Shown in pieces: positions 3,300 to 50,769 of a stretch of 64,000 bases of DNA. Every line of letters begins with the position of its first letter. Positions within the stretch are counted from its first letter, which is position 1. Location: the IMG/VR virus record IMGVR_UViG_3300031088_000793. The stretch is one strand, 5' to 3'. The DNA comes from a virus. Its lineage: Duplodnaviria > Heunggongvirae > Uroviricota > Caudoviricetes. The notes under the pieces are model-generated. The model saw only the letters and a program-made list of their open reading frames with translations. It ran no database searches and was not told the DNA's origin. A program made the translations under genes and the position numbers.

Positions 3300-4014
3300 G
3301 GTTGCTCCTCTTGATGCAGGATTGCTCCAGCAAATCTCTTCGACTATCGTAGGAGTCGCCGTTTAGGCAGCCTCGTTCCAGAAGCTCACGCTCAATGCCC
3401 AGGATGTCCGCTCTGACTTCAGCCGCTCTTCGATCCAGGCGAATTGCTCTGCGCTTTAGCTTGCGCTCCTTTCTGTCATTTGTTGCCAGTTCAGCTCGAA
3501 GCTTGACTTGCTTCAACTGGAGGCGCGCATCTGCATCTATGAGTGCTCTCTGCTCGGTGCTGGGCTGGGGAAGGAAACTGAATGTGATGTGGCGTCTTGT
3601 TCCGCGCTTCCGGTCAACGGCTATAAGGCCGTAGGATACCGGATAGTAGTTCGTGGAAATCAGCGGGTGGTATCTCAGAAAGCCACCGTAGGTCAGGATC
3701 AGAGCCACACTCAGTGGCAGTCCCACCGAGAATCCTCCCAGTACTTCTCCTGACAACAGGGCGGTTCCGGGAACTGCTGCCAGCCAGGCTCCTCCCACTG
3801 AGGAAAGCCCCACATTGAGTGCTGTGGCTAGCCGAAGCTTGGATCGCTGCGCCGGAGAGAACTCTGCGGAAACGGCTACTGGCTCTGGAACCGATTCTGT
3901 GACGGCGGTTTCCTCCAGGGCTACCCTATCTACAGACTGACCGACTTCGGAAGACTCCGAGGAGGCCGGCGCTGGAGGTAGCTCAGAGCCGGTCCCCTCC
4001 TCGAAGATCTTCAC
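3292..4014 (-). CDS. hypothetical membrane protein (240 aa)
   Basis: Two hydrophobic segments in the middle and a charged coiled C-terminus. Confidence 0.55.
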   Translation of the reverse strand: MKIFEEGTGSELPPAPASSESSEVGQSVDRVALEETAVTESVPEPVAVSAEFSPAQRSKLRLATALNVGLSSVGGAWLAAVPGTALLSGEVLGGFSVGLPLSVALILTYGGFLRYHPLISTNYYPVSYGLIAVDRKRGTRRHITFSFLPQPSTEQRALIDADARLQLKQVKLRAELATNDRKERKLKRRAIRLDRRAAEVRADILGIERELLERGCLNGDSYDSRRDLLEQSCIKRSNHG

Positions 4015-4019
4015 AGTGT

Positions 4020-4808
4020 TCAGTTCTCCTGAGTGGTATCGCCGTGGCCCTGGGGAAGCTGGTCCGTGAGGTATCCAGCGTCCCGCAGAGCATCCACGAG
4101 CTCAGTTGAGGAGGCTCCGCCGTCGAGCTGCCTGTCCACGAGGATGTAGAGCTCTCGCTGACGCTCCTGAAGCCGCTGCTCTTCGAGCTCTCGGGCTCGG
4201 GCCGCTAGCTCTCCGGCTAGAGCCATGAGCTCGAAGAGAGGGCTACTTTCCCAGTCCTCGTCCTCCTCGGGGAAGGGCTCGATCTCGAAGCGGGGGTCAG
4301 GGTTCTCTACCCCATCTGCTCGAAGGATCTCAACAGCTGCTGCTCGAAGCTCCCGGCTGCGCTCCTCGTCATCGTAGAAGAGACCGTCACCCCGGACACC
4401 GGTGCTGTAGACCGGCTCGGAGGAACTGTGGTCCGGGTAGTGGGCTCGGAAGTAGCCGTGGCGAAGTCTGAGGTAGCCGATCTGTCGGCCGTCTCGGAAG
4501 AAATCGTACTGCTCGGGTGCGGCAGCACAGGTGCGCTTCAGCTCCAGCTCCACAGGATTGAGCTCAGCTGGCTCCTCGGGAAGAATTCCCGCGTCCTTGA
4601 GGTAGCCGTAGAGCGCTACGGCCTCGTCGTGGCCTGCTAGGGGATTGCCAACGCTGTCCACGACGCCGTAGTCCCTGAGCCCTCGGACGAGCGCTGTGAG
4701 CGCCCTGTGCTCCAGGGTGGGCTCGAGCCCGGGCAGTGTGGGCTGTTCCATCTTGATTCCTTCGTTCTGTGAGCCCATCTTATCGAGCGAAGTCGACATT
4801 GAGCTCAT
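4020..4808 (-). CDS. hypothetical protein (262 aa)
   Basis: Minus-strand ORF in the dense array. Confidence 0.55.
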   Translation of the reverse strand: MSSMSTSLDKMGSQNEGIKMEQPTLPGLEPTLEHRALTALVRGLRDYGVVDSVGNPLAGHDEAVALYGYLKDAGILPEEPAELNPVELELKRTCAAAPEQYDFFRDGRQIGYLRLRHGYFRAHYPDHSSSEPVYSTGVRGDGLFYDDEERSRELRAAAVEILRADGVENPDPRFEIEPFPEEDEDWESSPLFELMALAGELAARARELEEQRLQERQRELYILVDRQLDGGASSTELVDALRDAGYLTDQLPQGHGDTTQEN

Positions 4809-5340
4809 CGGTCTCGGGGTTGACCGAGAGCGTCAGCGTTTCTCCGGAGATCAGCCCCGAGAACTGGAGGCTGTTCCGAGCGCTCATGGTCAGCGAGCGG
4901 CCGCCCTTGCCTCCCATGATCCGGACGAAGTAGATGCCGGGTCGATCCTTCCGAGAGAGCTCCACGGTGACTCGAGCCTCTCGGCCGTTGGTGAGCAGGA
5001 GCTCCTCGCTGATGGTTCCGTCCCGGCGGGTCGTGGTCTCCTTGACCACCAGGGGTGAGCCCTCGAGCTTCAGCTCCAGCGGCTGAGGTCCCGCGACTCG
5101 CTCGATGGCCTCGCTCCGGGAGATGTTCTCATCCTCGATGAGCTCAGCAACGCTCTCCTCGAGTTCGAGGGCTGCGAGGATCCGCTTGGAGCCCCAGCGC
5201 TTGGCGAGCATGGTGACGAGGGAGCGAGCTGCATCCCAGGCCTCCGAGCCGCTCTCGTAGTTGCTCTTGGTCGCCTGGTAGACGGCGTTGGTCTCCTGGT
5301 CGAGGAACTCCAGTTCCTGGACGATCTTCTCACTATTCAT
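4780..5340 (-). CDS. hypothetical protein (186 aa)
   Basis: The ORF starts 6 nt downstream of a TAGCAT -10 element, making it leaderless, and TTGCGG lies 17 nt further upstream. Confidence 0.6.
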   Translation of the reverse strand: MNSEKIVQELEFLDQETNAVYQATKSNYESGSEAWDAARSLVTMLAKRWGSKRILAALELEESVAELIEDENISRSEAIERVAGPQPLELKLEGSPLVVKETTTRRDGTISEELLLTNGREARVTVELSRKDRPGIYFVRIMGGKGGRSLTMSARNSLQFSGLISGETLTLSVNPETDELNVDFAR

Positions 5341-5427
5341 AGCGCAATGCTATACCATTGACTCTCCGCCCGCAACCGAAGGGCCAAGCGGGTTGCGGCG
5401 GGCCAGAGGTCCGTTGTATAGTCCACC

Positions 5428-5848
5428 CATGCGCCGAATCACCACCACAGACCAGGAACTGCTCCTGGAGGTCTCCCCCTGCACCGAGGAAGAAGTCGAC
5501 AGCTTCACTGCGGGCGACTGCTGGAAGCTTGCCCACGAGCTCCACAGCCAGGGGGCCGGTGAGCTCACGGGGGTCGTGGACGCCCGGGATCCATCCTTCT
5601 GGATCCACATGGTGGTGGAGCTCCCCGACGGCAACTTCCTCGATGTCTACGGCATTCAGAGCCGGGAGCAGCTCATGGATCGCTGGGCTCCCTACTTCGC
5701 TGGGAGCAAACCCGCCACGGCTCGCTACGATCTCTCGCAGCCCAGGCTCTGGGAGGAGCTCACGGGAGACCAGGACTTCGATCTCGCTGACCCCGAAGAG
5801 GTCGCCGAGGTTGCTCAGCGGCTCATCGAGTGGTCCGAGGACCTCTAG
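5428..5848 (+). CDS. hypothetical protein (~140 aa), the only plus-strand gene in the window
   Basis: Internal ATG (MRRITTTDQELL) of track ORF 5288..5848. Preceded by TTGCGG-N18-TATAGT-N6-ATG, so leaderless, in a divergent promoter pair with the 4780..5340 gene. Confidence 0.55.
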
Positions 5849-5860
5849 GTTCAATCCTCG

Positions 5861-7138
5861 CTAGAGTGCTAGGAAGCTGTTGCAGTAAATCGTTGCGCTC
5901 TTGACGCCCGAGCTCTCGAACTTTCCGAGGAACCTCTTAGCGATTCCGGCCTTCTCTGTGGGTGACAGGTCTACGAAGTTCAGCTCTGGAGTGTCATTGA
6001 GCTCTACTCTAAGGTGCTTCTCGAAGGAACTGTGCTTGGACATCACTAGCTTCTGAAGCGTGGGGGCAAAGGAGGTGCAAACCTTCTCCGTGTGCTCAAG
6101 GAGCGACTCAAGGTTAGCTCTGTTGGCGACTGAGAGCGGAGCGAGCATGCCGCTATCCCTGAACATTGCGTAGGAGGGGAGCTGCTTAGCGTAGTCGATG
6201 ATCTCTGAGTCACCTGAGATGTTGGCACTAAGCGTGAGCACTGCCTTGGTTTTACTGTAGGCAGATGCGATGGTCTTGCTATCTTCAGATGCATCTCGCT
6301 TGAAATCCCGCTCGAAGGAAAGCATGGCGACCGCCTGGAATGCTCCGAGGGAATCGGTGAGAATGGGCGTCGTGAGTACACCTTCTCCGTAGAGCTCGTC
6401 GCTCACGACCTGCACATTGAGGATAGCGTTCATCTGTCCAGTGACTGCCTTCTCAGAGGAGGCTCCGGCTCTGACGATTTCCCTGAGACCGTCGAAGTAA
6501 TCCCTGGAGGGGCTCGATTCACGAGCGTCTTCCTTCGCGCTCACTCGAATGGCGTAGACTTCCTTGCCACCCCTGGTGACCTTGTGCTTGAGGAAGATGG
6601 GAATAGCTGCTCTCACTTCGCTCTCTTCAGCGCCATCCCGGGCAAAGCCCAGCGCCATCTTGAAGAGCTTCTTGTAGCCAGCCTTATACTTCTTCGAGAA
6701 GTCCTTGTGGAATGACTCGAAGGCGTCAGCGGTGAGGTAGGCGCGCTTCTGGTCAAGGAGGTCTTGCTGAAAGTCAAAGGGGCTCTGGCAGCTCTTCTTC
6801 TGATTGCAGTCTGAGCAGATGGGGCAGATGTTGCCGTCAGCAGAAAGCCCAAGGTAGTAAACGGGGATGAGATGGTCCCACTGGATTGCCTGGGTCTCTG
6901 AGAGGACCCAGTCACCATCACGGAGCTCAAGGATCTGCTTGCCGCAGAACGGATCCCTACCTCCGGTGAGCTCTCCCAGGAGCTCTGCAGCGTAGATCGC
7001 GTCGAAGCGTTCGTAGGCGTTGTCGGCGATGTCTCGCTTAGTGAGCTTCCTGTGGCTGTAGTTTGAAACTACGGTGGGAGCCTTCGCTCGGATACCCTTT
7101 GCTCGGGCTTCCTCATAGCTAATCGGCGTCTGGTCCAT
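5861..7138 (-). CDS. HNH endonuclease domain protein (425 aa) with a long C-terminal extension of unknown function
   Basis: Zinc-ribbon HNH motif (CGKQ...WDHLIPVYYLGLSADGNICPICSDCNQKK). GC is about 50%, against about 62% for the surroundings. Confidence 0.75.
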   Translation of the reverse strand: MDQTPISYEEARAKGIRAKAPTVVSNYSHRKLTKRDIADNAYERFDAIYAAELLGELTGGRDPFCGKQILELRDGDWVLSETQAIQWDHLIPVYYLGLSADGNICPICSDCNQKKSCQSPFDFQQDLLDQKRAYLTADAFESFHKDFSKKYKAGYKKLFKMALGFARDGAEESEVRAAIPIFLKHKVTRGGKEVYAIRVSAKEDARESSPSRDYFDGLREIVRAGASSEKAVTGQMNAILNVQVVSDELYGEGVLTTPILTDSLGAFQAVAMLSFERDFKRDASEDSKTIASAYSKTKAVLTLSANISGDSEIIDYAKQLPSYAMFRDSGMLAPLSVANRANLESLLEHTEKVCTSFAPTLQKLVMSKHSSFEKHLRVELNDTPELNFVDLSPTEKAGIAKRFLGKFESSGVKSATIYCNSFLAL

Positions 7139-7248
7139 GGTGTCTCATCATTCTGTGTACTGTTGGCATGGAGTTCTCTTGCACAGCAGGCCTATGATTG
7201 CGAGGTTGTGGCCCAACTCGCGGCGCTGTTTTGATGTCCATGTATTTA

Positions 7249-7277
7249 GTATCGACAGATTCCACGAATGTTGACAA
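7249..7277 (-). promoter_or_regulatory. candidate sigma-70/SigA-like promoter for the HNH gene
   Basis: Minus-strand -35 TTGTCA, 17 nt spacer, -10 GATACT, about 100 nt upstream of the ATG at 7138 in an AT-richer 466-bp intergenic region. Confidence 0.3.
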
Positions 7278-7465
7278 AACTGATGAAATGTTTTTCCTGA
7301 GCGAACCTATTTCCTTTGAGCGTATGCGAACAGGGTCGAGATCATGCCGTAGGAAACCACAGGATCGATCCTAAGCGCCGCTATCACAGCATCGGTGCGT
7401 GCTTACACAGTAGCACACAACGGGCTAAGGCAGGCAGCAACGACCCGAGGGTATCAGACCGCAGA

Positions 7466-7497
7466 AAGGCCCGGACCTAACACGGTCCGGGCCTTCT
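7466..7497 (-). terminator. hairpin terminator downstream of the MazG-like gene
   Basis: Perfect 11-bp inverted repeat AGGCCCGGACC/GGTCCGGGCCT with a 6-nt loop, followed on the minus strand by TTTCTG. Confidence 0.5.
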
Positions 7498-7512
7498 GAT
7501 GGGATGCTAGAG

Positions 7513-7542
7513 GGCTGTCTAAGACAGAGCAGAGACAGCCCT
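7513..7542 (-). terminator. second hairpin (possible terminator or RNA structure)
   Basis: 9-bp inverted repeat GGGCTGTCT/AGACAGCCC immediately after the stop of 7606..7926. Confidence 0.35.
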
Positions 7543-7605
7543 GAGCGATGATGTGAGATTGCTATGCTCTGGGCTTAGACGGCATCCTCGCAACGCTCAG
7601 GCGGA

Positions 7606-7926
7606 TTAGCTGATGTTGCGGCCCTTGTCCTTGCGAATCTTGTGCTCCACCGCGTCGAGAAGATCGAACTCGCGCTTCTCCGAGATGCCGAGGAGGCAGA
7701 AGAGCACATCCGCCGACTCTTCCTTCAGATGGTTGAGATTCTTCGCAGAAGGATCAGCTTCGTAGTCCGCCAGGGCCTCCATGAGCTCATCGAACTCCTC
7801 CTGCAGCTTGCTGGTCTTGGAGTAGCGAGTCCAGCGAGTGCCGCGGAGCTTAGAGTAGAGGTGGAGGTAGCCGTTGAGCCGAGGCTTAGCCTTACCGGAG
7901 CCGGAGATACCGTCCTTGGCTGCCAT
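7606..7926 (-). CDS. MazG-like nucleotide pyrophosphohydrolase (106 aa)
   Basis: Helical EExxE-type motifs (LQEEFDELMEAL, EESADVLFCLLGI) and a size typical of the small MazG/HisE-like all-alpha NTP pyrophosphatases common in actinophages. Confidence 0.65.
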   Translation of the reverse strand: MAAKDGISGSGKAKPRLNGYLHLYSKLRGTRWTRYSKTSKLQEEFDELMEALADYEADPSAKNLNHLKEESADVLFCLLGISEKREFDLLDAVEHKIRKDKGRNIS

Positions 7927-8001
7927 GGGAAACTCCTAGAGCTGAATCAGTGGATGTGGTTGGAGCAACACTAACCCCACGGGCTCATGCTGTCAACACT
8001 C

Positions 8002-9198
8002 TCAGGCTCGCAGGGGTGCGACAGCTCGAAGGGGCACAGCATTGGTCCGCAGCTCTGCCATCAGTGGACAGATGAAGGGGTCTACCTTGGTGGAGAGCCC
8101 AACGCCGTTGAGGAAGCGCACTACCTCGCCGAAGCCACTGAAGAGCCCCATCTCCTTGTAGGCGATGCCCTTCTCCCGGCAGAACTCCTGAACGATGGGC
8201 CGAACCCGGGCCAGGTTGGGTCGAGCCATCGAGGGGAAGAGGTGATGCTCGATCTGGTAGTTGAGCCCACCGAGGAGCGTGTCCTTGACCCGGCTGGGAG
8301 TGATGTTCCGGGAGGTGAGGACCTGACGCTCAAGGAAGCCGATCCGAGAGCTTCTCTCCACCAGGGGCATGCCGATGTGGTTCACCGCGAAGGCGGCGCC
8401 GAGGAAGAAGCCGAAGGAGAGCATGTAGGTCATCCAGGCGATGGGAGAGACCCAGAGCGGAAGGAAGAGGAAGTAGACAGCCATGGGAGTGAGGAGCCGG
8501 ACGACGAGCATGGCCCCCTCGATCCAGCGGAGGTTGGCGCCCCGGCCAGTCTTCCTACCGAGGCTCTTGAAGGAGTCCAGGAGGAGGTCGAAGCTCGTGA
8601 GGAAGATCAGCACGGGGAAGAGCCAGCCCTGATTCCTCGTCAGCATGCGCTCAGCTGATGGCTTCTCGAACTTCTGCTCGGTGGAGAAGGCGATGATCCG
8701 CAGGGAGATGTCCGGGTCGCTGTCCACCATGTTGGGCTTGCCGTGGTGGCGGTTGTGCTTCTGGAGCCAGAAGCCGTAGGACAGCCCCGCGAAGAGATTG
8801 GCCATCACCATACCCACCCAGGTGTTGGCTCGATGATCCTCGAAGACCTGATTGTGGGCGAGCTCATGGGCGATGAAGGCGTACTGAGCGGTGAGCAACC
8901 CCTGGAAGACGATGAGGGGCAGCACGAGGAGAGTTATGGGCCCCGAGAGGAAGATTCCCATGAGGATGATCCCGGCCCAGGTCATCAGTGAGAGCAGAGT
9001 GACCACAGCGAAGGACCAGCCATAGAAGGCAGGGTGCTTCTTCAGAAGTCCCTCGTCCTTGACCTTGGTGAGGAGCTCACTGTAGACGGAGAGGTTTTTA
9101 GCGGCCACGGTGTAGCTCCAGATCGTCGGTGTGAGCTCTACTATCAGCGCTGCGGGAAAGGATATGCCGCAGAGGGCATGAAGGAGGGGCTCAAGCAC
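8002..9198 (-). CDS. membrane fatty-acid (acyl-lipid/acyl-CoA type) desaturase
   Basis: Three His boxes in the expected order (HELAHN, HNRHHG, QIEHHLFP) with TM helices in the N-terminal half. Confidence 0.85.
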   Translation of the reverse strand: MLEPLLHALCGISFPAALIVELTPTIWSYTVAAKNLSVYSELLTKVKDEGLLKKHPAFYGWSFAVVTLLSLMTWAGIILMGIFLSGPITLLVLPLIVFQGLLTAQYAFIAHELAHNQVFEDHRANTWVGMVMANLFAGLSYGFWLQKHNRHHGKPNMVDSDPDISLRIIAFSTEQKFEKPSAERMLTRNQGWLFPVLIFLTSFDLLLDSFKSLGRKTGRGANLRWIEGAMLVVRLLTPMAVYFLFLPLWVSPIAWMTYMLSFGFFLGAAFAVNHIGMPLVERSSRIGFLERQVLTSRNITPSRVKDTLLGGLNYQIEHHLFPSMARPNLARVRPIVQEFCREKGIAYKEMGLFSGFGEVVRFLNGVGLSTKVDPFICPLMAELRTNAVPLRAVAPLRA

Positions 9199-9249
9199 TA
9201 TGGCTGGAGCCCCTCCTCTGTGGATCTACCGTCAGCTCCGAGCGGCTGC

Positions 9250-9627
9250 TCAGCGCAGGGGGCGGTTGAGCGGAGCGATCATGCCTCCTCCATCGGGATC
9301 CTCCTCGAAGCAGAAGAGTCCGCCAGCGCCAGCCTCGTAGCCGTCCCGGTCGTAGACCACGCAGGTGAGCTCAGTGCCACCCTCTGTGGTGTAGCTGAAG
9401 TCGAAGACATCTCCCCTGCGGCTAGAGCCGGGCACCTCCACATAGGTCGAGGTCTCGCCCTCCGTGGGTTCAGCCTGGCTGCTGTCTGGGCTCTGATCCG
9501 CTGGAGCCTCAGTCGGAGCGCTGCTGCAGCCCGAGAGTAGAGCTGCGATGAAGCCCAGCGCTACGATGAGCGAGAAGACCCTGAAGATCGCGGATGGCAT
9601 TCCGCCGATGGTCCTTTGACTCCCCAC
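9250..9627 (-). CDS. lipoprotein (125 aa)
   Basis: Signal peptide with lipobox (LLSGC) followed by a Ser/Pro/Glu-rich linker. Confidence 0.6.
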   Translation of the reverse strand: MGSQRTIGGMPSAIFRVFSLIVALGFIAALLSGCSSAPTEAPADQSPDSSQAEPTEGETSTYVEVPGSSRRGDVFDFSYTTEGGTELTCVVYDRDGYEAGAGGLFCFEEDPDGGGMIAPLNRPLR

Positions 9628-9671
9628 GGGAGCCTCCTGTTCTGGGCCTTGGCCCCTAGCTCTGAGCCCGC

Positions 9672-10130
9672 TCAGACGAAGTGGTAGAAGTTTCCGTCAT
9701 CGGGGTCGACACTCCAGCCGAGCTCCTCGAGCCGCTGAATCTGCTCCTCGGAGAAGTACTCAGGATCGATGCTGCTGTAGATCACATCGTGCTCAGCGGA
9801 GAGCCACTGGCCGCCACCGTGCTCCCGGAGCACCGTCCGGAGGATGGCGAGGGCCTCGATGAGACGGTCGTATTCCCGAGACTCGTTGGAGGACGGAATC
9901 TCGTCCACACCTTCTCGGTAGATCTCCCAGCCGTTGGAGTTCAGAGTCATCTGATCGATGTTGCCGGGGAACTCCCCGGAGAGAACCTCGATGCTGGCGA
10001 TGTGAACAGCTGAAGGGGCACCTGCCATGCCTTCGAAGTCGTTGAGGAGGTAGCCTCGGAGCCTGATGGCGTCCTTGATAGCGATGATGTTGGAGCCCTG
10101 GGGTGCAAGGCCGAAGAACTGTGCGCTCAT
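9672..10130 (-). CDS. hypothetical protein (152 aa)
   Basis: Minus-strand ORF in the dense array. Confidence 0.5.
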   Translation of the reverse strand: MSAQFFGLAPQGSNIIAIKDAIRLRGYLLNDFEGMAGAPSAVHIASIEVLSGEFPGNIDQMTLNSNGWEIYREGVDEIPSSNESREYDRLIEALAILRTVLREHGGGQWLSAEHDVIYSSIDPEYFSEEQIQRLEELGWSVDPDDGNFYHFV

Positions 10131-10183
10131 GGGGAGCCTTTCCGTTGGAGTAAGATCGATGGATCGGTAGCTGACGGGGCCGC

Positions 10184-10615
10184 TCAGTGGAAGCTCTCAG
10201 CTATCTTTCCGCGGGCGTACTCGACCACAGCTCCACGCTCCAGCGAGGGGAAGGCCTCGAGGAGCTCGTCGGTGAGCACAGTGATGGCTTCGGCTTCCTC
10301 GGGGTTGGGGATCTCCGGCACATCCATGGTGAGATGGGGAAGAGGGGTGGTCTTGAAGAGCGAGATCTCGCTCTCTCGCCAGCCGCTGAAGACGAAGGGG
10401 TAGGGCCACCACTGACCCGTCTCCGTGAGCTGAGCCATCTCGTCCTCGAAGAGGTCCTCCATGCCGGGCTGGTCGAGCTTGTAGACCCCCGGCTCGGTGG
10501 GCACGGGGTAGCGCTGAGGCTCACTCTGGGGCTTGCTGTACTGCTGAAGGAGCTGGTTCACCTCTGCTGCGAGTCCCGTGGCTTCGGGGAGGCAGCGTGC
10601 GTTCTCAGAGGACAA
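10184..10615 (-). CDS. hypothetical protein (143 aa)
   Basis: Minus-strand ORF overlapping the next gene by 11 nt. Confidence 0.5.
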   Translation of the reverse strand: MSSENARCLPEATGLAAEVNQLLQQYSKPQSEPQRYPVPTEPGVYKLDQPGMEDLFEDEMAQLTETGQWWPYPFVFSGWRESEISLFKTTPLPHLTMDVPEIPNPEEAEAITVLTDELLEAFPSLERGAVVEYARGKIAESFH

Positions 10616-10931
10616 CGGTCTCAGCCTCCTTCGCGGCCTTCTTGGCCGCCTTCTCCTCGGCGGCAGCGAGCTGCTCGACGAGCTTCACGGCGATGTACTG
10701 AGCGGGAAGGAGGTAGCCCGATTCGACGGGGCTCTGGTTCATCCACTCGCTGCGGAGCGCGGGGATCTTGCGGTTGATCTCGGCAGCGGTGAACTCGGGG
10801 TAGCGGCTGGAGATGGCCTCGCCCATGTTGAACTGGGAGTCGAAGTTCTTCTCCTCCAGGACCTCGAAGATCCTGTCAGAGAGGTTGGTGATGTGAGCGA
10901 AGTTCTCGAAGATCGGGCTGTGGGTAGCCAT
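10605..10931 (-). CDS. hypothetical protein (~108 aa; true start probably the ATG at 10931, MATHSPIF)
   Basis: The track ORF starts at a TTG. An internal ATG has a GGAG Shine-Dalgarno 9 nt upstream and sits downstream of promoter 10976-11004. Confidence 0.5.
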   Translation of the reverse strand: MATHSPIFENFAHITNLSDRIFEVLEEKNFDSQFNMGEAISSRYPEFTAAEINRKIPALRSEWMNQSPVESGYLLPAQYIAVKLVEQLAAAEEKAAKKAAKEAETVVL

Positions 10932-10975
10932 TGCGGTGTACTCCAATGATTTCGGTGGCAGTGCGGTGTAGATCC

Positions 10976-11004
10976 AGAGTACACGGCGACTCGAATCAGC
11001 GCAA
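10976..11004 (-). promoter_or_regulatory. conserved promoter (-35 TTGCGC, N17, -10 TACTCT)
   Basis: Member of the recurring TTGCGN-N17-TANNNT family, followed by a ~38-nt leader with a Shine-Dalgarno sequence. Confidence 0.45.
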
Positions 11005-11059
11005 TGGGAAGGGCCGGAAGCAACTTTCCGCTCCCGGCCCTTCCTCTCTGAGTTCTAGC

Positions 11060-11881
11060 TCAGCGGTTCAGCGCCCTGTACTGCGCCTCTTCCCAGCGGT
11101 CCTTGGCCGAAGAACCCATCTCGTCCCAGTTCATGGGACGCTTGACTCCAGCTGCCTCCAGGCTGGCGGCAATGTTCTGAGGAATCCGAGCTGAGCTGAG
11201 CTTGGGCTCTCCGGTCGCAGCATCTCGAAGCTCATCCTCAGAGTGGATCACCCGCAGCTTTTCACCTCGAGCGATGACGCCCAGCCGACCAGCACTCGTG
11301 ACCAGGAAGCTAACGCCCTCGTTTCCAGGCTTACCGTAGTGTCCCAGGCCGTCGTGCTCGTAGCCAAGCTCTGTCAGGGTGTCGAAGGATTCACTGTGAG
11401 TCCGGCGTCTCTGCTCAATGGCCACAGCGCTCCCGATGTCCCGATCCCAGACGAGCCCAGGTCTTCCAGCGTTGAGCTGATCTGAGGAGCGAGCGCTGAG
11501 CTGCGTGAGCTCTTCGTCTGAGAGCCCTTCGAGCTTGATTCCCAGTGCCTTCCGACCTTCCCGGGCAGCGAGCATGCTCCCTGCGTTCCCAGCGGTGCTG
11601 AGCTCTGCTCTGAGACCCTCGTAGCGCTCCTCTGTGGATACCGACGGCTTGGGAGCTGTGGGCGCAGGAGCAGCGCCGTAGCGTGCCTCAAGGAGTGACT
11701 TGCCGAGCTTCGACTCGGGGAGCCTGTCCATGGCGTAGCGCTCGATCTCGTCGGCTCGCTCACTGTCATCAGCACTGCGAGCAGCCGTGAGATCAGCCTC
11801 GACCTTGCTCTCCACGCCTCCGAGCTCTCCCTTGGAGGCGAACTCGCCGTTCTCCTTGCGGTAGGGGTTGTAGCCAGCCAT
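11060..11881 (-). CDS. hypothetical protein, paralog family A (273 aa)
   Basis: Its N-terminal ~75 aa (GYNPYRKENGEFASKGE...DRLPES.LGK.LLEARYGAA) is shared with the 16686..18059 protein. Confidence 0.6.
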   Translation of the reverse strand: MAGYNPYRKENGEFASKGELGGVESKVEADLTAARSADDSERADEIERYAMDRLPESKLGKSLLEARYGAAPAPTAPKPSVSTEERYEGLRAELSTAGNAGSMLAAREGRKALGIKLEGLSDEELTQLSARSSDQLNAGRPGLVWDRDIGSAVAIEQRRRTHSESFDTLTELGYEHDGLGHYGKPGNEGVSFLVTSAGRLGVIARGEKLRVIHSEDELRDAATGEPKLSSARIPQNIAASLEAAGVKRPMNWDEMGSSAKDRWEEAQYRALNR

Positions 11882-11957
11882 CTCTTGCTCCTCTAGGTAG
11901 ATCGTCTGTCGGATTGCTATCTAATCCGTTTAGATCCCTGAGCACCAGGGGCTGAAG

Positions 11958-12512
11958 CTATGCTCCGATGATGGCGTTCCGGTCGATGCCTGCCTGAACA
12001 GCCTCCGCCCAGTCCACCATCCGGAGGAGATCGGCCTTCGTGAGCCCGCTGTGGGAATCCGTGGCGATGATCAGCGAGGGAGCAACGGTGTGCTCCTCGA
12101 CGAACTCGCGCCAGAAGAGAGGAGCCTTGTCATCGATCCAGATGAAGGGCCGGGGGTTCTCTCGCTGATCGGCGATGATGTGGAGGGCCTTCCACTCAGT
12201 CCACTCCTTGCTCCCCTTGGCCTCGTGGTTCAGCGCGGCGGGAGCGTGCTCCTCATGGGGGAAGCCCATGCCCTGGGCGGCTCGCTTGATCAGCGAGTGC
12301 TCGTTCCAGGTGGTGAGCCAGACCAGGCCGAAGCCAGCGACTCGGAGGAACTCTCCGAAGAGCTCCAGCATCTCCTGATCCCAGGCGATGATGGTCTCAG
12401 CTCTGAAGAACTTGGAGCCAGCTGTGGCTACCCGGGCGGTCCGAAGGCCGGAGCGCTTCGGAGTGTTGTGGACTCCGTCGAAGTCGGAGTAGGCTACGCC
12501 GTTGATGGTCAT
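11958..12512 (-). CDS. HAD-superfamily hydrolase-like protein (~185 aa; start at MTINGVAY)
   Basis: HAD motif I-like DFDGV near the N-terminus and a motif IV-like WIDDK. The ORF upstream of this ATG is a likely extension artifact. Confidence 0.45.
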   Translation of the reverse strand: MTINGVAYSDFDGVHNTPKRSGLRTARVATAGSKFFRAETIIAWDQEMLELFGEFLRVAGFGLVWLTTWNEHSLIKRAAQGMGFPHEEHAPAALNHEAKGSKEWTEWKALHIIADQRENPRPFIWIDDKAPLFWREFVEEHTVAPSLIIATDSHSGLTKADLLRMVDWAEAVQAGIDRNAIIGA

Positions 12513-18563: not shown

Positions 18564-19697
18564 CTAGAGCCGGAAGAGCAGCTCCAGCAGAGGTCGCCAG
18601 CTGTCTGCCCTCTGCTGATCTTCGCTCCGGGACGCTGAGCCGAAGCGGGCGAGCTCATCTCCGGAGACTGTGTAGAGCTGGAGCTCCCGGAAGTCCTCTG
18701 AGTAGTAAGCCGAGTCCGCCGTGAGGATCCCAGCGGGGAGTGAGTCGCCGCAGGACTGATCCTCTGCGACCTCAAAGCCGCCGATGAGCACGCCTCCGAG
18801 GGTTCGCTCGTAGGGCGCTAGAGCCTGGCTACAGCCCTCTTCCAGGGTCACTAGTCCCGACTCCCGGTCGAAGCGCAGATTCAGAGCGCTGTCTTCGGCG
18901 GAGATCCAGCTGTAGCCATCCGGAGCGGGAGGATCGAGATGGAGATCAGCTGGGGAGAGCTGCTGATGGAGCTGCGAGACCCCCAGGCCGAAGAGCGTCG
19001 AGAGGAGAAGTGCTGCCGCTAGGGCTCTGCGCTTCCTCCGAGGGGCGACCACGGCGAGGGAGCTCCGGAGGATGCCGATGCCCCGAGGGATCATCAGCGC
19101 GGCAAGGCCGAGGGCTGCGATGGCGTCGGCTCGGAGGAAGCCGAATGCCAGCACTGCGATGCCTCCGGCTATAACCACCAGGGAGCCGAGGGCGTCGCTG
19201 ATGACCTCGAGGAAGGCTGCTCGGAAGTTGAGGTTGGCCTTCCTGCTGGAGTAGAGGATACCTACGCAGACGAGGTTGGCCACGAGTCCCACTGAGGCGA
19301 AGACAAGGAGGTACTCACCGGCGATGGGATGGGGCACGATGAGGGACCGGAGCCCTCGGAGCGCGGCGTAGATACCGACACCCACGAGGAGCGTGGACTG
19401 GATCAGCGCAGAGAGCGCCTCGAGCCGTTCCTGAGCTGCTGCGCTCGGTCTCCGGGGAACCAGAGAGACTCCGAAGGCTACGGCGATGCCGAGGAGATCC
19501 ACGAGCATGTGGACAGATTCAGCCAGGAGTGCGATGGAGCCGGTGAGGAGCGCTCCGACGAACTGAGCTCCACAGGCAGCCAGGGCGATGAGGAGCACTG
19601 CTCCCAGTCGGAAACGGAGGAGCCTTCGATCCTCAGCTCCCACAGGAGAGGGGAGAGCGTGGCTGTGGCCCATCTGCTCTCCCCTCTCTCGCTTCAC
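18564..19697 (-). CDS. cation diffusion facilitator (CDF) family transporter with an atypical C-terminal domain
   Basis: His-rich N-terminus, TM2 LAESVHMLVDLLGI and a six-TM core typical of CzcD-like CDF proteins. The C-terminal ~150 aa have two Cys residues and no obvious CDF cytoplasmic-domain signature. Confidence 0.7.
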   Translation of the reverse strand: MKRERGEQMGHSHALPSPVGAEDRRLLRFRLGAVLLIALAACGAQFVGALLTGSIALLAESVHMLVDLLGIAVAFGVSLVPRRPSAAAQERLEALSALIQSTLLVGVGIYAALRGLRSLIVPHPIAGEYLLVFASVGLVANLVCVGILYSSRKANLNFRAAFLEVISDALGSLVVIAGGIAVLAFGFLRADAIAALGLAALMIPRGIGILRSSLAVVAPRRKRRALAAALLLSTLFGLGVSQLHQQLSPADLHLDPPAPDGYSWISAEDSALNLRFDRESGLVTLEEGCSQALAPYERTLGGVLIGGFEVAEDQSCGDSLPAGILTADSAYYSEDFRELQLYTVSGDELARFGSASRSEDQQRADSWRPLLELLFRL

Positions 19698-23679: not shown

Positions 23680-24627
23680 TCAGTGAGCGGCTGTGCCCCT
23701 ACGCTTGGCGATTGCCGCGCCGATGAAGTGCACGGGGAGGAAGATCAGCACACCCCAGAGGATACCGAAGGCGGTGGAGGCCAAGGTCTCGCCGAACCAG
23801 GCGATGATCCCGTTGTAGTGGTGGAAGAACTCCTCCAGGCCGTGGAGGCTGTGGGAGAAGATCTCGATGCCGATGTCTCCCAGGGATTTCCAGACCAGGT
23901 GGCCACCGACCCAGAGCATGGCGAAGGTACCGACCACGCTCAGCGTCTTGAAGACTCCGGGCATGGCCTGGAGGAGGCCGAGGCCGAAGAGTCGAACTCC
24001 ACGGCCCTTCCGGCGTGCCATGTGGAGACCGATGTCGTCCACCTTGATGAGCAGCCCGACCACGCCGTAGACCAGCGCCGTGAGGCCGACGGCCACGATG
24101 GAGAGCATGAGGAGCTTGCTGATCCAGTTGTCGATGTCGATGGAGGACAGCGAGATCAGCATGATCTCAGTTGAGAGCACCAGGTCGGTGGTCACCGCGC
24201 TGGTCACCATCTTCTTCTCCAGCTCCTCCGAGCTGTTGGCTGCGAGGCGCTCTTCCTTGTGGCCCTTGAGGAGCTTCACCATGAGGAGGAACTTCTCGGC
24301 TCCCTCGAAGGCGAGGTAGGAGCCACCGATCACGAGGAGGTAGGGCAGCGCTGCCGGCAGGAGCCAGGAGAGCAGCATGAGCAGGGGGATGACGATGAGG
24401 AACTTGTTCCGGAGGCTACCCTTGGTGATCTTCCAGATCACGGGGAGCTCACGAGCGGGCGAGAGTCCTGTGACGAGCTGTGGCGCTACAGCGATGTCGT
24501 CGACGATGACGCCGGAGGTCTTGACCGCGGTTCGGCTCGCGCCGAGGGCCACATCGTCGATGGTCGCGAGCGAGGCCTTGGCGAGGACAGAGATGTCGTC
24601 GAGGAGGGCGAAGAATCCCGAGGGCAT
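23680..24627 (-). CDS. DUF808 (YedI-like) inner-membrane protein
   Basis: N-terminus MPSGFFALLDDISVLAKAS and the overall TM pattern match the DUF808 family. Confidence 0.7.
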   Translation of the reverse strand: MPSGFFALLDDISVLAKASLATIDDVALGASRTAVKTSGVIVDDIAVAPQLVTGLSPARELPVIWKITKGSLRNKFLIVIPLLMLLSWLLPAALPYLLVIGGSYLAFEGAEKFLLMVKLLKGHKEERLAANSSEELEKKMVTSAVTTDLVLSTEIMLISLSSIDIDNWISKLLMLSIVAVGLTALVYGVVGLLIKVDDIGLHMARRKGRGVRLFGLGLLQAMPGVFKTLSVVGTFAMLWVGGHLVWKSLGDIGIEIFSHSLHGLEEFFHHYNGIIAWFGETLASTAFGILWGVLIFLPVHFIGAAIAKRRGTAAH

Positions 24628-25462: not shown

Positions 25463-26371
25463 TCAGTGGCTCTTCTGGAGATCCTCGTAGACTCCACCCC
25501 GAAGGCTGGAGACCTCGCTGAAGACGACCACAGCATCGGGATCGGTCTCGATGATTCGCTCCGTGAGCTCCGATGTCTCGAGCCGGGTAAGGACGAAGCG
25601 GAGCTGGTGGACTTTGCCGACGAAGCCCTCGCCGTGCTTCCAGTGCTTCTTCTCGTCGATGACCACATGGCGCTTGGTGATGCTCACGATGGTCTCAGCG
25701 ACTGCCTCGGGATGCTCAGTAGAGACCACGGCCGACTTGAACTCATTGGTGCCGTTGACGATCTTGTCGATGAGCGTCGAGACCACCACATAGAAGAGCA
25801 GGGCCGAGGACATGGCGGACTGCCAATCCATGACGAAGCCAGCGACGAGGAAGACGCAGACATTGATGCCGAGGATGAGCTGGTCCACCGAGTAGGCGCT
25901 CCGGTTGGAGATAATCGTAGCCAGGGCTTCGGTGCCGTCGAGGGCTCCACCATTCCGGAGGGCGATACCCACGCCGAAGCCGAGGAGTGCGCCTCCGTAG
26001 AAGAGCGCCAGCACATAGTTGTCCGTCCAAGGATCCATGTGGTGCCAGAGCACGGCGAAGGTGGCCAGGGTCGCCACGCCCAGTGTGGTACGGAGCGCTG
26101 AGCGTCTGCCGAGCTTCCACCAGGTCAGTGCGATGAAGGGCAGATTGAGCACAGCGATGAAGACACCCACCGGGATGTCGATGAACTTGGAGAGGATGAT
26201 GGAGATACCCGTGAGGCCTCCGTCGAGGAAGCCGTGGGGGATGAGGAAGGCCTCGAGGCCGAGCGCTGCTAGGAGTCCACCTCCCACGACGAGGGCGATG
26301 TGGTAGAGCTCTCGGAGGATCGGGTGGTGACCCTGGAGCTTGCTCATGGTCCGGTGGACGGTCTTTTCCAT
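25463..26371 (-). CDS. YitT-family membrane protein (DUF161 core plus C-terminal DUF2179-like domain)
   Basis: ILRELYHIALVVGGGLLAALGLEAFLIPHGFLDGGLTG matches the YitT N-terminal signature, with a soluble C-terminal domain. Confidence 0.7.
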   Translation of the reverse strand: MEKTVHRTMSKLQGHHPILRELYHIALVVGGGLLAALGLEAFLIPHGFLDGGLTGISIILSKFIDIPVGVFIAVLNLPFIALTWWKLGRRSALRTTLGVATLATFAVLWHHMDPWTDNYVLALFYGGALLGFGVGIALRNGGALDGTEALATIISNRSAYSVDQLILGINVCVFLVAGFVMDWQSAMSSALLFYVVVSTLIDKIVNGTNEFKSAVVSTEHPEAVAETIVSITKRHVVIDEKKHWKHGEGFVGKVHQLRFVLTRLETSELTERIIETDPDAVVVFSEVSSLRGGVYEDLQKSH

Positions 26372-47461: not shown

Positions 47462-47505
47462 GATCTTCTCTCCCTGATGAAAGCAGCACTGGTCACATCA
47501 TAGGA
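47455..47505. repeat. duplicated ~50-bp 5' region, also present at 48895-48945
   Basis: CTGTTCAAGATCTTCTCTCCCTGATGAAAGCAGCACTGGT versus CTGTCCAAGATTTTCTCTCCCTGATGAAAGCTGCACTGGT, immediately upstream of members 4 and 5. Confidence 0.6.
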
Positions 47506-47639
47506 ATTGAGCTCTCCAGCCGCGTAATCGGTGAGGTTCCGAGGCTGGAGAGATTCCGCATCTAGAATGCTGAAATGTTCCTATGTGACGGATTATCAAC
47601 ACAGCTGAAGCGCCGGAGATAGCACCGTAGACTCACTGA

Positions 47640-47680
47640 CAGGAATTGCCCCTCGGAGCTCAGCTCCGAGGGGCAATTCC
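47640..47680 (-). terminator. strong hairpin downstream of 47700..48902
   Basis: 19-bp perfect inverted repeat AGGAATTGCCCCTCGGAGC/GCTCCGAGGGGCAATTCCT with a 3-nt loop. Confidence 0.5.
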
Positions 47681-47699
47681 TGAGATCCTAGTTCAATCG

Positions 47700-48902
47700 C
47701 TAGGAAGCAGTGGGCTGGAAGGGGGGAGTGGTGTTGAAGTCGGAGAACTTGGGGTAAAAGCCATCCCAGTTCTGGCCAGTAGCTGCGTTGTACTCAGCCA
47801 CTGTCGGGTAGGAATTCTCGCCGTCAGCTGATGAGTAGAAGCGCATGTTTCCATCGCCGAGGTCTACGATCCTACCGGGGCCCTGCTTTCTGTCTGACTG
47901 CTCAGTCAGGGCATAGCCATTGGAATCGGATCCGTTGTACTTCAGATACATGATCTCGACACTGTTGATGCGGATGTAGTCGTAGCCATCTCGGATCGAG
48001 TCATAGCGAATAGTAAGGTTATTATCTCCAGTAAGGGAGTAGAAGGGCAGATTCGAAGCCGTTGCGGGAGGGCTAAAGTCCAGCATGCTCTTCTGGCGGG
48101 CCACCGAGATCCTGCCGCCGGTCTGTGTGGCAACATTGACCAGGTTCAGCTGACCTTCCTCCATCACATAGCGACTTTCGGAAATGCTCGGAGCTCCCGA
48201 TCCAGAGGGGGCAAAGTTATATGCAACCATCGCACCGGCCTTAGGTGCTCCTCTGAGATCGTAGTACATATACATCCCGCCGCTATCGAGGACCTGGAGC
48301 TTTACGCCCGAAGAGGGAGCTAGAGAGACGGGCAGAACACCGACTCCAGCATTGAGGTTCACGACCTCAGGTCGAGATCCATCCTCGGGGAAGCCTAGCC
48401 GCATTGTGTTTGAAGCTGCATCGTAGGAAGAAATGGACTGCCAGCCATCGGGGTGAGTTCGAGGAGCCTTGCCTTCAGCCACTAGGGCCTCATTGGCGTT
48501 GGAGAAGTCGACCATTGCCTGTGTGACCCTGAAGCTCACAGGGCCCTTCTGGTAGTCGACCAGGAGGCTAGAGCTGTCCTCTGGACTACCGGGAACTGCT
48601 CCATCTCCACCCGTGCCGCCGCCGGGCGTAGTGCCACCGGAACCATCTCCAGGTGTAGTGCCACCGCCGCCAGTGCCATCTCCGGGAGTTGTGCCTCCAC
48701 CGGAGCCGCCACCGCCGCCGGGGTTGGTGCCTTTGAGGCCGGCCGTAGCCTTGAACTTGCTCTCCTCGATGTTCTGCGCGTGGACGAAGAATCCACCTCC
48801 ATCGAGGCTTGCCGATGCGGGAACGGCGATGAGGGGGACGGCTAGAGCTGCCCCGATGGTGGCGAGGATAATCCTCTTCTGTCTACGGGGTGTCCTGTCC
48901 AA
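47700..48902 (-). CDS. secreted protein, paralog family D, member 5 (400 aa), with a Gly/Thr/Pro-rich low-complexity linker
   Basis: Signal peptide and the shared N- and C-terminal modules. Linker GGGGSGGGTTPGDGTGGGGTTPGDGSGGTTPGGGTGGDG. Confidence 0.65.
   Translation of the reverse strand: MDRTPRRQKRIILATIGAALAVPLIAVPASASLDGGGFFVHAQNIEESKFKATAGLKGTNPGGGGGSGGGTTPGDGTGGGGTTPGDGSGGTTPGGGTGGDGAVPGSPEDSSSLLVDYQKGPVSFRVTQAMVDFSNANEALVAEGKAPRTHPDGWQSISSYDAASNTMRLGFPEDGSRPEVVNLNAGVGVLPVSLAPSSGVKLQVLDSGGMYMYYDLRGAPKAGAMVAYNFAPSGSGAPSISESRYVMEEGQLNLVNVATQTGGRISVARQKSMLDFSPPATASNLPFYSLTGDNNLTIRYDSIRDGYDYIRINSVEIMYLKYNGSDSNGYALTEQSDRKQGPGRIVDLGDGNMRFYSSADGENSYPTVAEYNAATGQNWDGFYPKFSDFNTTPPFQPTAS
48600..48725. 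repeat. coding tandem repeat (Gly-rich linker of member 5)
   Basis: Imperfect ~30-nt units encoding TTPGDG(S/T)GGG. Confidence 0.5.
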
Positions 48903-49584: not shown

Positions 49585-50769
49585 TCAGTTGCAGAGTCTG
49601 AGCACTCCATTGGCCATGGGTGCTACCATGCAGCTACCGTCGGTAGCGGACTTGGAGAGCAGACCCGGAGCCTTCTCTCCAGCGACCTCGGACCAGCTCA
49701 CGCCACCGTCGCTAGAGCCATAGAGAGCGACCTTGCCCACTGACCAGTCAATGCTCGAAGCGATGAGCCGATCTCCCGTAGATCCGAGAAGCGAGGAGTA
49801 GGCGGGAAGTCCAGTAGCACTCAGAGGACTCCAGCTGCCTCCACCTGTTGAGGCAAAGTAGCTCGGCTCAGTGCCGTCGGTAGCTCCGAGGGCCGTGGAG
49901 TTGCGGATCACAGTGCCACCCTGCTCGATAGCGCCGTTGGCCATCCTGCCGATGGGGCTCTTGGCCAGGGATGTTCCGGGGATCTGCTGAGCAGAGAGCT
50001 TCCAGTTGGCCCCATCGGAGGACTCGATCAGAGCGCTGCTGATGTTGCCATCCGCTGTGCCGACGAGCCCCGTAGCTGCTACGAGCTTACCGCCGAAGGA
50101 GTATACCTCTACGATGGAGGTTGAACTGTAGGCTGCGACGACTTCAGGAGGAAGCGCTGCGTTGCTCCAGCTGACTCCATCCCGGGAGTAGATCAGAGGC
50201 GCTACGCCGCTCTCCCCAGAGCCGCCCGCTACAAAGGCCCCATTGCCGTAGGCCACATAGGTGAAGCTGCTAAGATTCGAGCTCTGCTCAGTCCAGTTAG
50301 CACCGTCGGTGGAGCTCATGATTCTGCCATCATTGGAGACGGCAACATAGCGGCCACCGCCGTAGGCCACGCTGAGCCAGCCACCTTCGGGCGCATCGTC
50401 GCTCGCGGTCCAAGTCTTACCGTCCGCGGAGCTCATGGTTCTGTGAGCGCCGCCCGTCGAGACCGCCACATACTTGCCGGCTCCGTAGGTCGCGCCTGTC
50501 CAGTTACCGTCGGGAACCGTATAGAGCTCAGCCTGACCTGGCTCAGCGGGGCTGGGAGTCTCTTCGCCACCTCCGGGTGGCAGTGAGACCCCTCTCATGC
50601 CAGCAGTTGCTTCGTACTGCTTTTCCTCGATGTTCTGAGCGTGGACAAGGAAGCCGCCTCCATCCAGTGCGGCTGAGGCTCCAGGGACCAGAGCAAAGCT
50701 GCCTACCGCCGCGATGGCTAGCGCTCCGAGTAGTCGATTTCTGCTCTGTAGTGGCTTCTTGCTCATCAT
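49585..50769 (-). CDS. secreted BNR/Asp-box repeat protein (sialidase-like beta-propeller), family D-related N-terminus
   Basis: Signal peptide and ALDGGGFLVHAQNIEEKQYEATAG as in family D, followed by at least six Asp-box repeats (SSADGKTWT, STDGANWT, SRDGVSWS, SSDGANWK, STGGGSWS, SSDGGVSWS). Confidence 0.7.
   Translation of the reverse strand: MMSKKPLQSRNRLLGALAIAAVGSFALVPGASAALDGGGFLVHAQNIEEKQYEATAGMRGVSLPPGGGEETPSPAEPGQAELYTVPDGNWTGATYGAGKYVAVSTGGAHRTMSSADGKTWTASDDAPEGGWLSVAYGGGRYVAVSNDGRIMSSTDGANWTEQSSNLSSFTYVAYGNGAFVAGGSGESGVAPLIYSRDGVSWSNAALPPEVVAAYSSTSIVEVYSFGGKLVAATGLVGTADGNISSALIESSDGANWKLSAQQIPGTSLAKSPIGRMANGAIEQGGTVIRNSTALGATDGTEPSYFASTGGGSWSPLSATGLPAYSSLLGSTGDRLIASSIDWSVGKVALYGSSDGGVSWSEVAGEKAPGLLSKSATDGSCMVAPMANGVLRLCN

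Follow-up and report, generated by a model that had tools for sequence, protein, structure and literature searches.

The window analysed here, a stretch of 64,000 nucleotides from the Caudoviricetes record IMGVR_UViG_3300031088_000793, carries a minus-strand gene for a 425-aa protein with an HNH nuclease motif near its N-terminus, and both the open reading frame (ORF) and the motif are as a first-pass annotation of the bare sequence had described them (Table 1). The gene lies in a slot between a MazG-like pyrophosphohydrolase gene and a convergent gene for a 139-aa protein. In related genomes this slot is always filled, either by another member of the HNH family or by a nuclease-like protein that is unrelated to it.

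All homologues of the HNH gene were found at one and the same position. In the loci of relatives, numbered L001 onwards and compared over 10 kb on either side of the gene, the order is a desaturase gene, the MazG-like gene, a spacer or one to two DUF3592 genes, the HNH gene and the convergent gene for the ~139-aa protein. The HNH gene is present at this site in seven distinct metagenomic loci, with 28–99% protein identity and in genomes of 40–62% GC. The conserved 139-aa neighbour was then used as a query that takes no account of the occupant of the slot, and further loci were brought in. Seven distinct loci have a different protein, of ~425 aa, in the slot. Empty sites, proposed earlier as something to look for in related genomes, were found in none of the 14 distinct loci, including those reached through the neighbour gene; instead, unrelated nuclease genes alternate at the slot. 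One relative of 50% GC (L024) carries two tandem HNH-type genes at its positions 6001-8627, coding for 481 aa and 379 aa, the second of which belongs to a wider group of ~300-aa proteins with an N-terminal HNH domain.

The alternative protein gives no sign of kinship with the HNH family (BLASTP E 0.066, hhalign probability 0.5%), and by the same values a domain common to both families, for which the string 'SAYSKTK' had been considered, was ruled out. Its sequence has two CxxC pairs and, in the C-terminal part, the motif 'P(Y/F)D ... E-V-D-G-G-x-H-Y ... D-R-x-K-T ... R-I-D-E-R', which we read as a PD-(D/E)xK/DUF559-like nuclease domain, so that these occupants are referred to as PD-ExK alleles. 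In Pfam they match NOV_C only (E 0.07), and among PHROG families they match phrog_559, annotated as HNH endonuclease (E 8e-12), and a 'homing endonuclease' family (E 0.004). Two sub-types can be distinguished, with a common C-terminal domain and differing N-terminal halves. The PD-ExK family is tiny and was found at this slot only, and tblastn of an alternative allele against 50,697 phage records gave no match.

In regard to the limits of the exchanged segment, blastn homology between genomes with different alleles reaches as far as the stop codon of the convergent gene, is then lost, and returns ~11–25 nt into the nuclease ORF from its 5′ end. The breakpoints are sharp, and the gene does sit at a site of gene exchange, as the first-pass annotation had implied. 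Every allele type has a leader box, CCATGCCAAC-N11-17-G(A/C)GACACC-ATGG, directly at its start codon (L001-L021); each locus contains the box once, and it is unique in the 64-kb window. The same leader stands out in the window as an isolated island of 46 nt (7173..7128) that is 91% identical to L011, a carrier of the other nuclease. Promoter, leader and the first 2–8 codons are common to unrelated alleles, and the box, judged by its conservation, marks the limit of the exchangeable segment on the 5′ side. Furthermore, purifying selection acts on the HNH gene (dN/dS 0.08, 0.13, 0.15 and 0.07 in four comparisons), and its dS of ~1.1 between the window and L002 or L008 amounts to 3–6 times that of the flanking genes for L002 and to about twice that for L008. 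In the comparison with L002, the trough in identity is confined to 7613..5850. Likewise, the flanks are not grouped by allele, with those of L013 (HNH) being 88.5% identical to L017 (PD-ExK) and 81.5% to L015 (HNH). Taken together, the breakpoints, the leader island, the dS values, the identity trough and the grouping of the flanks suggest that the alleles have been exchanged repeatedly by homologous recombination, using the conserved leader on one side and the convergent gene on the other.

Table 1. Features at and around the nuclease slot, with positions in the 64,000-nucleotide window.
Feature	Position	Strand	Basis
Papain/transglutaminase-like Cys-His-Asp protein (probable), 139 aa; fixed 3′ boundary of the slot	5429..5848	plus	Conserved, convergent
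HNH-type nuclease allele, 425 aa	5861..7138	minus	ORF call, ATG start; full-length homologue alignment; variable slot occupant
All-alpha C-terminal region, residues ~205-425, putative DNA-binding	5864..6526	minus	Confident structure prediction
Integrase SAM-like/core-binding-like part (likely), residues ~300-380	5999..6241	minus	Sub-threshold Pfam, Foldseek
Core, residues ~25-175 (HNH and three following helices)	6614..7066	minus	Profile search
HNH (beta-beta-alpha-metal) catalytic motif, residues 62-116	6791..6955	minus	Invariant residues; PDB 4h9d alignment; Pfam/PHROG
Leader box CCATGCCAAC-N17-GAGACACC-ATGG	7128..7173	minus	Spans ribosome-binding site, start codon and first codons
Sigma-70-like promoter, TTGTCA-18-GATACT	7248..7277	minus	Consensus scan; block conserved in relatives
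Intrinsic-terminator-like hairpin ending the MazG transcription unit	7462..7498	minus	dG -30.1 kcal/mol, z -6.8, then UUUCU
First hairpin after the MazG-like gene	7506..7546	minus	dG -20.5 kcal/mol, z -3.9
MazG-like pyrophosphohydrolase, upstream neighbour	7606..7926	minus	Pfam MazG E 1e-6; syntenic in all loci

The N-terminal domain of the protein is, by its invariant catalytic residues and its HNH matches, a bona fide His-Me finger nuclease domain with the active-site motif intact. The motif is made up of D62-x2-C65, D88-H89, N103 and C105-x2-C108-x2-C111-N112, so that a second Cys pair (C108-x2-C111) is joined by an extra C105, and D62, C65, D88, H89, N103, C105, C108, C111 and N112 are all invariant in an alignment of eight sequences with 36–99% identity. 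Residues 17-154 are matched by PHROG families that carry the label endonuclease VII or HNH, with values up to E 7e-7, and Pfam HNH (PF01844) aligns to residues 83-116 (E 0.003). The profile of the family retrieves PDB 4h9d, an 'HNH endonuclease', with E 2.4e-6 and with the DH...GN...CxxCN core aligned, and this is the only solved structure reached by sequence. The 4h9d protein, Gmet_0936, is a small phage HNH endonuclease that has the DH...N...CxxCN core in common with the window protein; it differs in its size (112 vs 425 aa), in that the match covers residues 86-144 only, and in having nothing in common with the helical region or the C-terminal half. In the AlphaFold2 model the motif is surrounded by predicted strands and a helix, but the predicted local distance difference test (pLDDT) score is below 50 at residues 88-103. 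From the conservation of the motif we infer endonuclease activity on DNA.

Among 5.8 billion clustered proteins only seven homologues were found, all of them metagenomic and full length, with 40–99% identity, and the size of the family is put at ~10 clusters. No match was obtained by tblastn of the protein against 50,697 phage records and 72,556 plasmids, nor were relatives found when genomes of the Genome Taxonomy Database (GTDB) and IMG/VR were scanned with the single sequence and with alignments. A profile search against 1.84 billion representatives added two more relatives of the full-length type and showed that residues ~25-175 are common to ~80 clusters of ~300-aa proteins with an N-terminal HNH domain. 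The profile-linked relatives P0008-P0014 exceed the Pfam HNH cut-off, with 21.5–32.2 bits. The HNH domain of the ~300-aa relatives resembles that of Cas9/IscB, and these distant relatives match Cas9d, IscB and Cas9 models over an HNH segment of ~70–120 residues only; the differences from Cas9/IscB are the lack of a RuvC domain and of a guide RNA, and the window protein itself has no NCBIfam match. The first-pass annotation had also suggested a single-gene defence module, but no known defence-system model was matched in PADLOC, where the best match (E 0.0025, 15.8 bits) covered the HNH motif only. A Septu-type partner (PtuA ATPase) is not found beside the gene, whose neighbours are the MazG-like and papain-like genes.

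The protein does have a large extra C-terminal region, as was noticed at the outset. An AlphaFold2 model built from the 8-sequence alignment has a mean pLDDT of 74, and residues 205-425 are predicted as all-alpha with pLDDT ~85–95. At the level of sequence the earlier statement that no domain is recognisable stands, but the predicted structure yields a weak lead. When the C-terminal halves of the eight family members were searched at a permissive threshold, Phage_int_SAM_1 was the only Pfam family matched by more than one of them, in two of the eight (E 0.014 and 0.088) at equivalent residues (~313-380) and below the cut-off. Foldseek against PDB returned nothing significant; the match with the highest probability (0.33), to the integrase N-domain 3nrw, has a TM-score of 0.56 on the target and ranks 31st by E-value (3.9). 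Each of the three pointers, from predicted structure, Foldseek and Pfam, is weak, yet they agree with one another, and the region is likely, although not proven, to be a DNA-binding domain like the core-binding domain of tyrosine recombinases. The latter, a SAM-like domain, is known from lambda Int (2oxo/1z1b), XerC/D/H, 3nrw and the integrase-like regulators SroF and MrpR, and the window protein differs in having no recombinase catalytic domain and in that its likeness is sub-threshold both by sequence and by Foldseek. Phage_integrase is not matched, and the protein ends at residue 425 inside the helical region. NUMOD, IENR1, AP2 and HTH, searched for as standard DNA-binding modules of homing endonucleases, had no Pfam match in the C-terminal halves at E up to 10. 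No match was found for a profile of the C-terminal half against PDB sequences, and a literature search for a fusion of HNH and core-binding domains returned nothing relevant.

Upstream of the gene, the TTGTCA/GATACT hexamers pointed out earlier are present and kept in relatives, the two hairpins between the MazG-like gene and the HNH gene are supported by their folding energies, and the HNH gene, with its promoter placed after the terminator, is a transcription unit of its own. At the position of the hairpin that ends the MazG unit, relatives retain a GC hairpin and a T run with changed sequence. Several other candidates for this region were ruled out. A leader hairpin masking the start codon is not indicated, with a minimum free energy no better than that of shuffled sequences (z +0.56); the leader does not encode an upstream peptide, because the distance between the two ATGs varies (27–33 nt) and the frame is not kept; and the 467-bp upstream region is not a decayed DUF3592 gene, of which tblastn found no trace. 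Rfam models run on 5700-8000 gave nothing credible. DUF3592 membrane-protein genes between the MazG-like gene and the slot number 0, 1 or 2 in relatives, which constitutes a second presence/absence polymorphism (L003 4824-6114, L009 11902-12459, L016 and L026 2482-3776, equivalent to 7139-7605 of the window); the window has neither such a gene nor a remnant of one. Four CTWAG motifs are clustered in 204 bp (7371-7578) of the interval that separates the MazG terminators from the HNH promoter. Several of them fall on columns invariant in relatives, and this is the only such cluster among the 46 sites of the 64 kb.

In regard to base composition, the gene has 55.5% GC and the 467-bp spacer upstream of it 53.1%, giving 54.8% together against 61.7% for the window. 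The low-GC island reported by the first-pass annotation is real, and no other stretch of 1745 bp in the window has a lower GC (z -3.5; 0.12% of windows equally low), although the ~50% given for it was too low and the deficit is ~7 points, not 12. At the three codon positions, GC1/GC2/GC3 of the gene are 0.55/0.41/0.70 against means of 0.64/0.45/0.78 for ~90 genes of the window called by a simple GC3-based caller, corresponding to offsets of -1.6/-0.7/-1.2 standard deviations (SD), and the gene is an outlier at none of them. Its codon-adaptation index, with the window's own genes as the reference, has z -1.1 (rank 12 of 86). Residues with AT-rich codons are over-represented in the protein (FYMINK 25.7%, z +1.6; GARP z -1.2). 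The deviation in GC thus affects all codon positions, is partly an effect of amino-acid composition and is not extreme. After the nuclease region, GC is lowest at 47500-48500 of the window (54–56%), where the minus-strand ORFs 47700..48902 and 49585..50769 have no Pfam or PHROG assignment and were skipped by the GC3-based caller.

The composition had been taken to indicate recent horizontal acquisition. This is contradicted by the relatives, a kind of evidence that the first-pass annotation had itself named as counting against its proposal: in them the gene is found at the same site down to 28% identity and, in those of 40% and 50% GC, at the GC of its surroundings (40.3 vs 40.5% in L006, 51.4 vs 49.8% in L024). 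Among the high-GC relatives the gene is 4–9 GC points low without exception, even where protein identity has fallen to 47%, and because the deficit persists across them it is old and not the mark of a recent import.

The convergent gene on the other side of the slot is the only opposite-strand gene in this stretch, and in every locus examined its 3′ end overlaps that of the nuclease gene by 4 bp or stands at most 12 bp from it. In its product C31, H60 and D72 are invariant and the structure model has pLDDT 83, so it is probably a minimal papain/transglutaminase-like enzyme. The protein has no family annotation, matches nothing in NCBIfam and gave no tblastn match in 50,697 phage records. Because distant homologues (L022, L023) have no nuclease neighbour, we regard the gene as a backbone gene that would serve as the 3′ homology arm, and not as a proven partner of the nuclease.

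The window as a whole is a one-strand array of mostly orphan genes, without tRNA genes and with matches to ~25 PHROG families. A 720-aa protein is 47% identical to a protein of Mycobacterium phage WXIN and has a match in Rhodococcus phage Weasels2 as well, while blastn of 4001-12000 against phages gave only a 104-nt match in the desaturase gene, to Microbacterium phage Min1. The relatives are found on contigs of 98–346 kb. Based on the orphan gene array, the actinophage matches and the size of these contigs, the window appears to be part of a large actinophage-like element. Megablast of its positions 1-25000 against plasmids gave no match, though the element could conceivably be plasmid-like. 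The same element family includes the contigs Ga0308169_10000040 (346 kb) and Ga0308169_10000096 (193 kb); it spans 40–62% GC, has no close cultured relative and is possibly an uncultured jumbo-phage lineage of Actinobacteria. Host-like membrane genes on the minus strand, coding for a fatty-acid desaturase (8002-9198), a cation-efflux protein (18564-19697), a DUF808 protein (23680-24627) and a YitT-family protein (25463-26371), may be auxiliary metabolic or membrane-remodelling genes.

The reading we tentatively prefer, although we would give it somewhat less than an even chance, is that the HNH gene is an active endonuclease allele of a polymorphic, recombination-prone and always-filled nuclease slot, in homing-like competition between phages. 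The slot lies between the MazG-like gene, followed by 0–2 small membrane-protein genes, and the convergent 139-aa gene, and has its own promoter after the terminator. According to this model, the N-terminal His-Me finger would cut DNA, with the all-alpha C-terminal half positioning the protein on it. Alleles would be swapped by homologous recombination between the common leader and the common convergent gene. The nuclease would cut the genomes of co-infecting relatives that carry the other allele, and repair would copy the allele of the cutter across (marker exclusion). Homing-like competition between co-infecting relatives would be the most likely role. The idea of a mobile homing endonuclease put forward in the first-pass annotation survives in this form, as homing and competition, with the difference that alleles replace each other and do not insert into empty sites.

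Related to this, work on ICP1 and other phages has documented that a single locus can hold differing homing endonuclease genes, that nuclease genes occur where recombination boundaries fall, and that domains are swapped in a modular fashion (PMC10448857). Free-standing HNH homing endonucleases, of the T4 MobE type and in ICP1/vibriophage (PMC10448857, PMC2790892), resemble the present case in that an HNH gene lies between conserved phage genes with sharp breakpoints, that different nuclease genes occupy one locus among isolates, and that nuclease and DNA-binding domains are combined in a modular way. The slot differs from them in that there are no empty sites and the family is found at one slot of one lineage, and in that promoter, leader and first 2–8 codons are common to unrelated alleles; moreover, the C-terminus of the window protein is not NUMOD, IENR1, AP2 or HTH. 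Several observations weigh against the proposed competition between alleles. The absence of empty sites, together with the small size of both nuclease families and their confinement to this slot, is unlike typical promiscuous homing endonucleases, and promoter and leader are parts of the backbone and not of a cassette. The window protein scores under the Pfam HNH cut-off (18.0 vs 21.4 bits), an Asp replaces the first zinc ligand of the canonical CxxC (D62-x2-C65), and the likeness to a core-binding domain is weak, being non-significant in Foldseek and below the cut-off in Pfam. Finally, the raised dS of the HNH gene could partly reflect weaker codon bias instead of exchange.

Several other explanations can be considered for the same locus. 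The nuclease could be a domesticated weapon that degrades host, satellite, superinfecting or defence-related DNA and whose alleles turn over in an arms race, which is conceivable but clearly not probable. A slot that is always filled, strong purifying selection with the catalytic residues kept, dedicated and conserved expression signals, and the interchangeability of unrelated nucleases would all suit such a role, and the MazG-like neighbour would fit strategies based on the nucleotide pool or on DNA modification. ICP1 phages reportedly carry alternative nucleases against their satellites. However, nothing connects the gene to host or satellite DNA, and PADLOC found no match to known defence or anti-defence families. 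Somewhat less plausible, though still worth considering, is a permanently filled, balanced-polymorphic 'nuclease socket', in which the fixed promoter, leader and first codons would drive interchangeable unrelated nucleases (HNH with an integrase-like core-binding domain, or Zn-ribbon PD-(D/E)xK) for strain recognition or exclusion between sibling phages, possibly together with the papain/transglutaminase-like enzyme.

A housekeeping nuclease for DNA processing, such as a branch or Holliday-junction resolvase like T4 endonuclease VII, displaced non-homologously in some relatives, is unlikely. It could account for a slot that is never empty, the best PHROG match (PHROG 1035, with a His-Me finger core) carries the endonuclease VII label (E 7e-7, and E 2e-14 for the ~300-aa relative P0011), and a core-binding-like domain would suit junction DNA. 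Nevertheless, that PHROG match covers the HNH core only, Pfam Endonuclease_7 has no match to the window protein even at E up to 0.1, and T4 endonuclease VII has ~157 aa, so that the 425-aa protein far exceeds it, by a factor of ~3. The gene lies in a variable locus and is not a core gene; fast turnover of alleles and high dS would be unusual for an essential one, two tandem HNH genes fill the slot of L024, and the alternative alleles match PHROG families annotated as HNH or homing endonucleases. Even less can be said for a two-gene module, in which the 139-aa protein would inhibit or activate the nuclease or act with it as a processing or modifying enzyme. Strict adjacency in every locus (from the 4-bp overlap to a 12-bp gap) and the opposite orientation of the small gene are in line with it, but the same small protein stands beside unrelated nucleases, its distant homologues lack a nuclease neighbour, and it is enzyme-like and not like a nuclease inhibitor, which makes such a module quite improbable. 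The original proposal of a recently acquired foreign low-GC island, holding a mobile homing endonuclease or a single-gene defence module, is the one we find hardest to credit. The stretch is indeed the lowest in GC and has its own promoter and terminators, yet synteny contradicts an import, the gene is at background GC in low-GC relatives, its deficit is modest at each codon position and partly due to amino-acid composition, and no homologues outside the lineage that could point to a donor were found in phages, plasmids, GTDB, IMG/VR or clustered proteins.

HNH nucleases in variable regions of phages are already known, and the biology proposed here is close to the known behaviour of homing endonucleases. 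What is new is the architecture of an HNH domain joined to a core-binding-like helical region, the very small and lineage-restricted family, and a never-empty slot at which unrelated nucleases use one promoter, leader and set of first codons. If the competition between alleles is wrongly read, the gene is merely another phage HNH gene. If it is right, the slot would be a clean natural case in which nucleases without common ancestry compete for a single fixed place in the genomes of large phages of an uncultured lineage, with exchange joints defined within ~25 nt and an expression leader retained across unrelated alleles. It would add a previously undescribed HNH architecture, combining HNH with a core-binding-like helical domain, and allele-versus-allele homing or exclusion between phages would be directly testable with synthetic genes.

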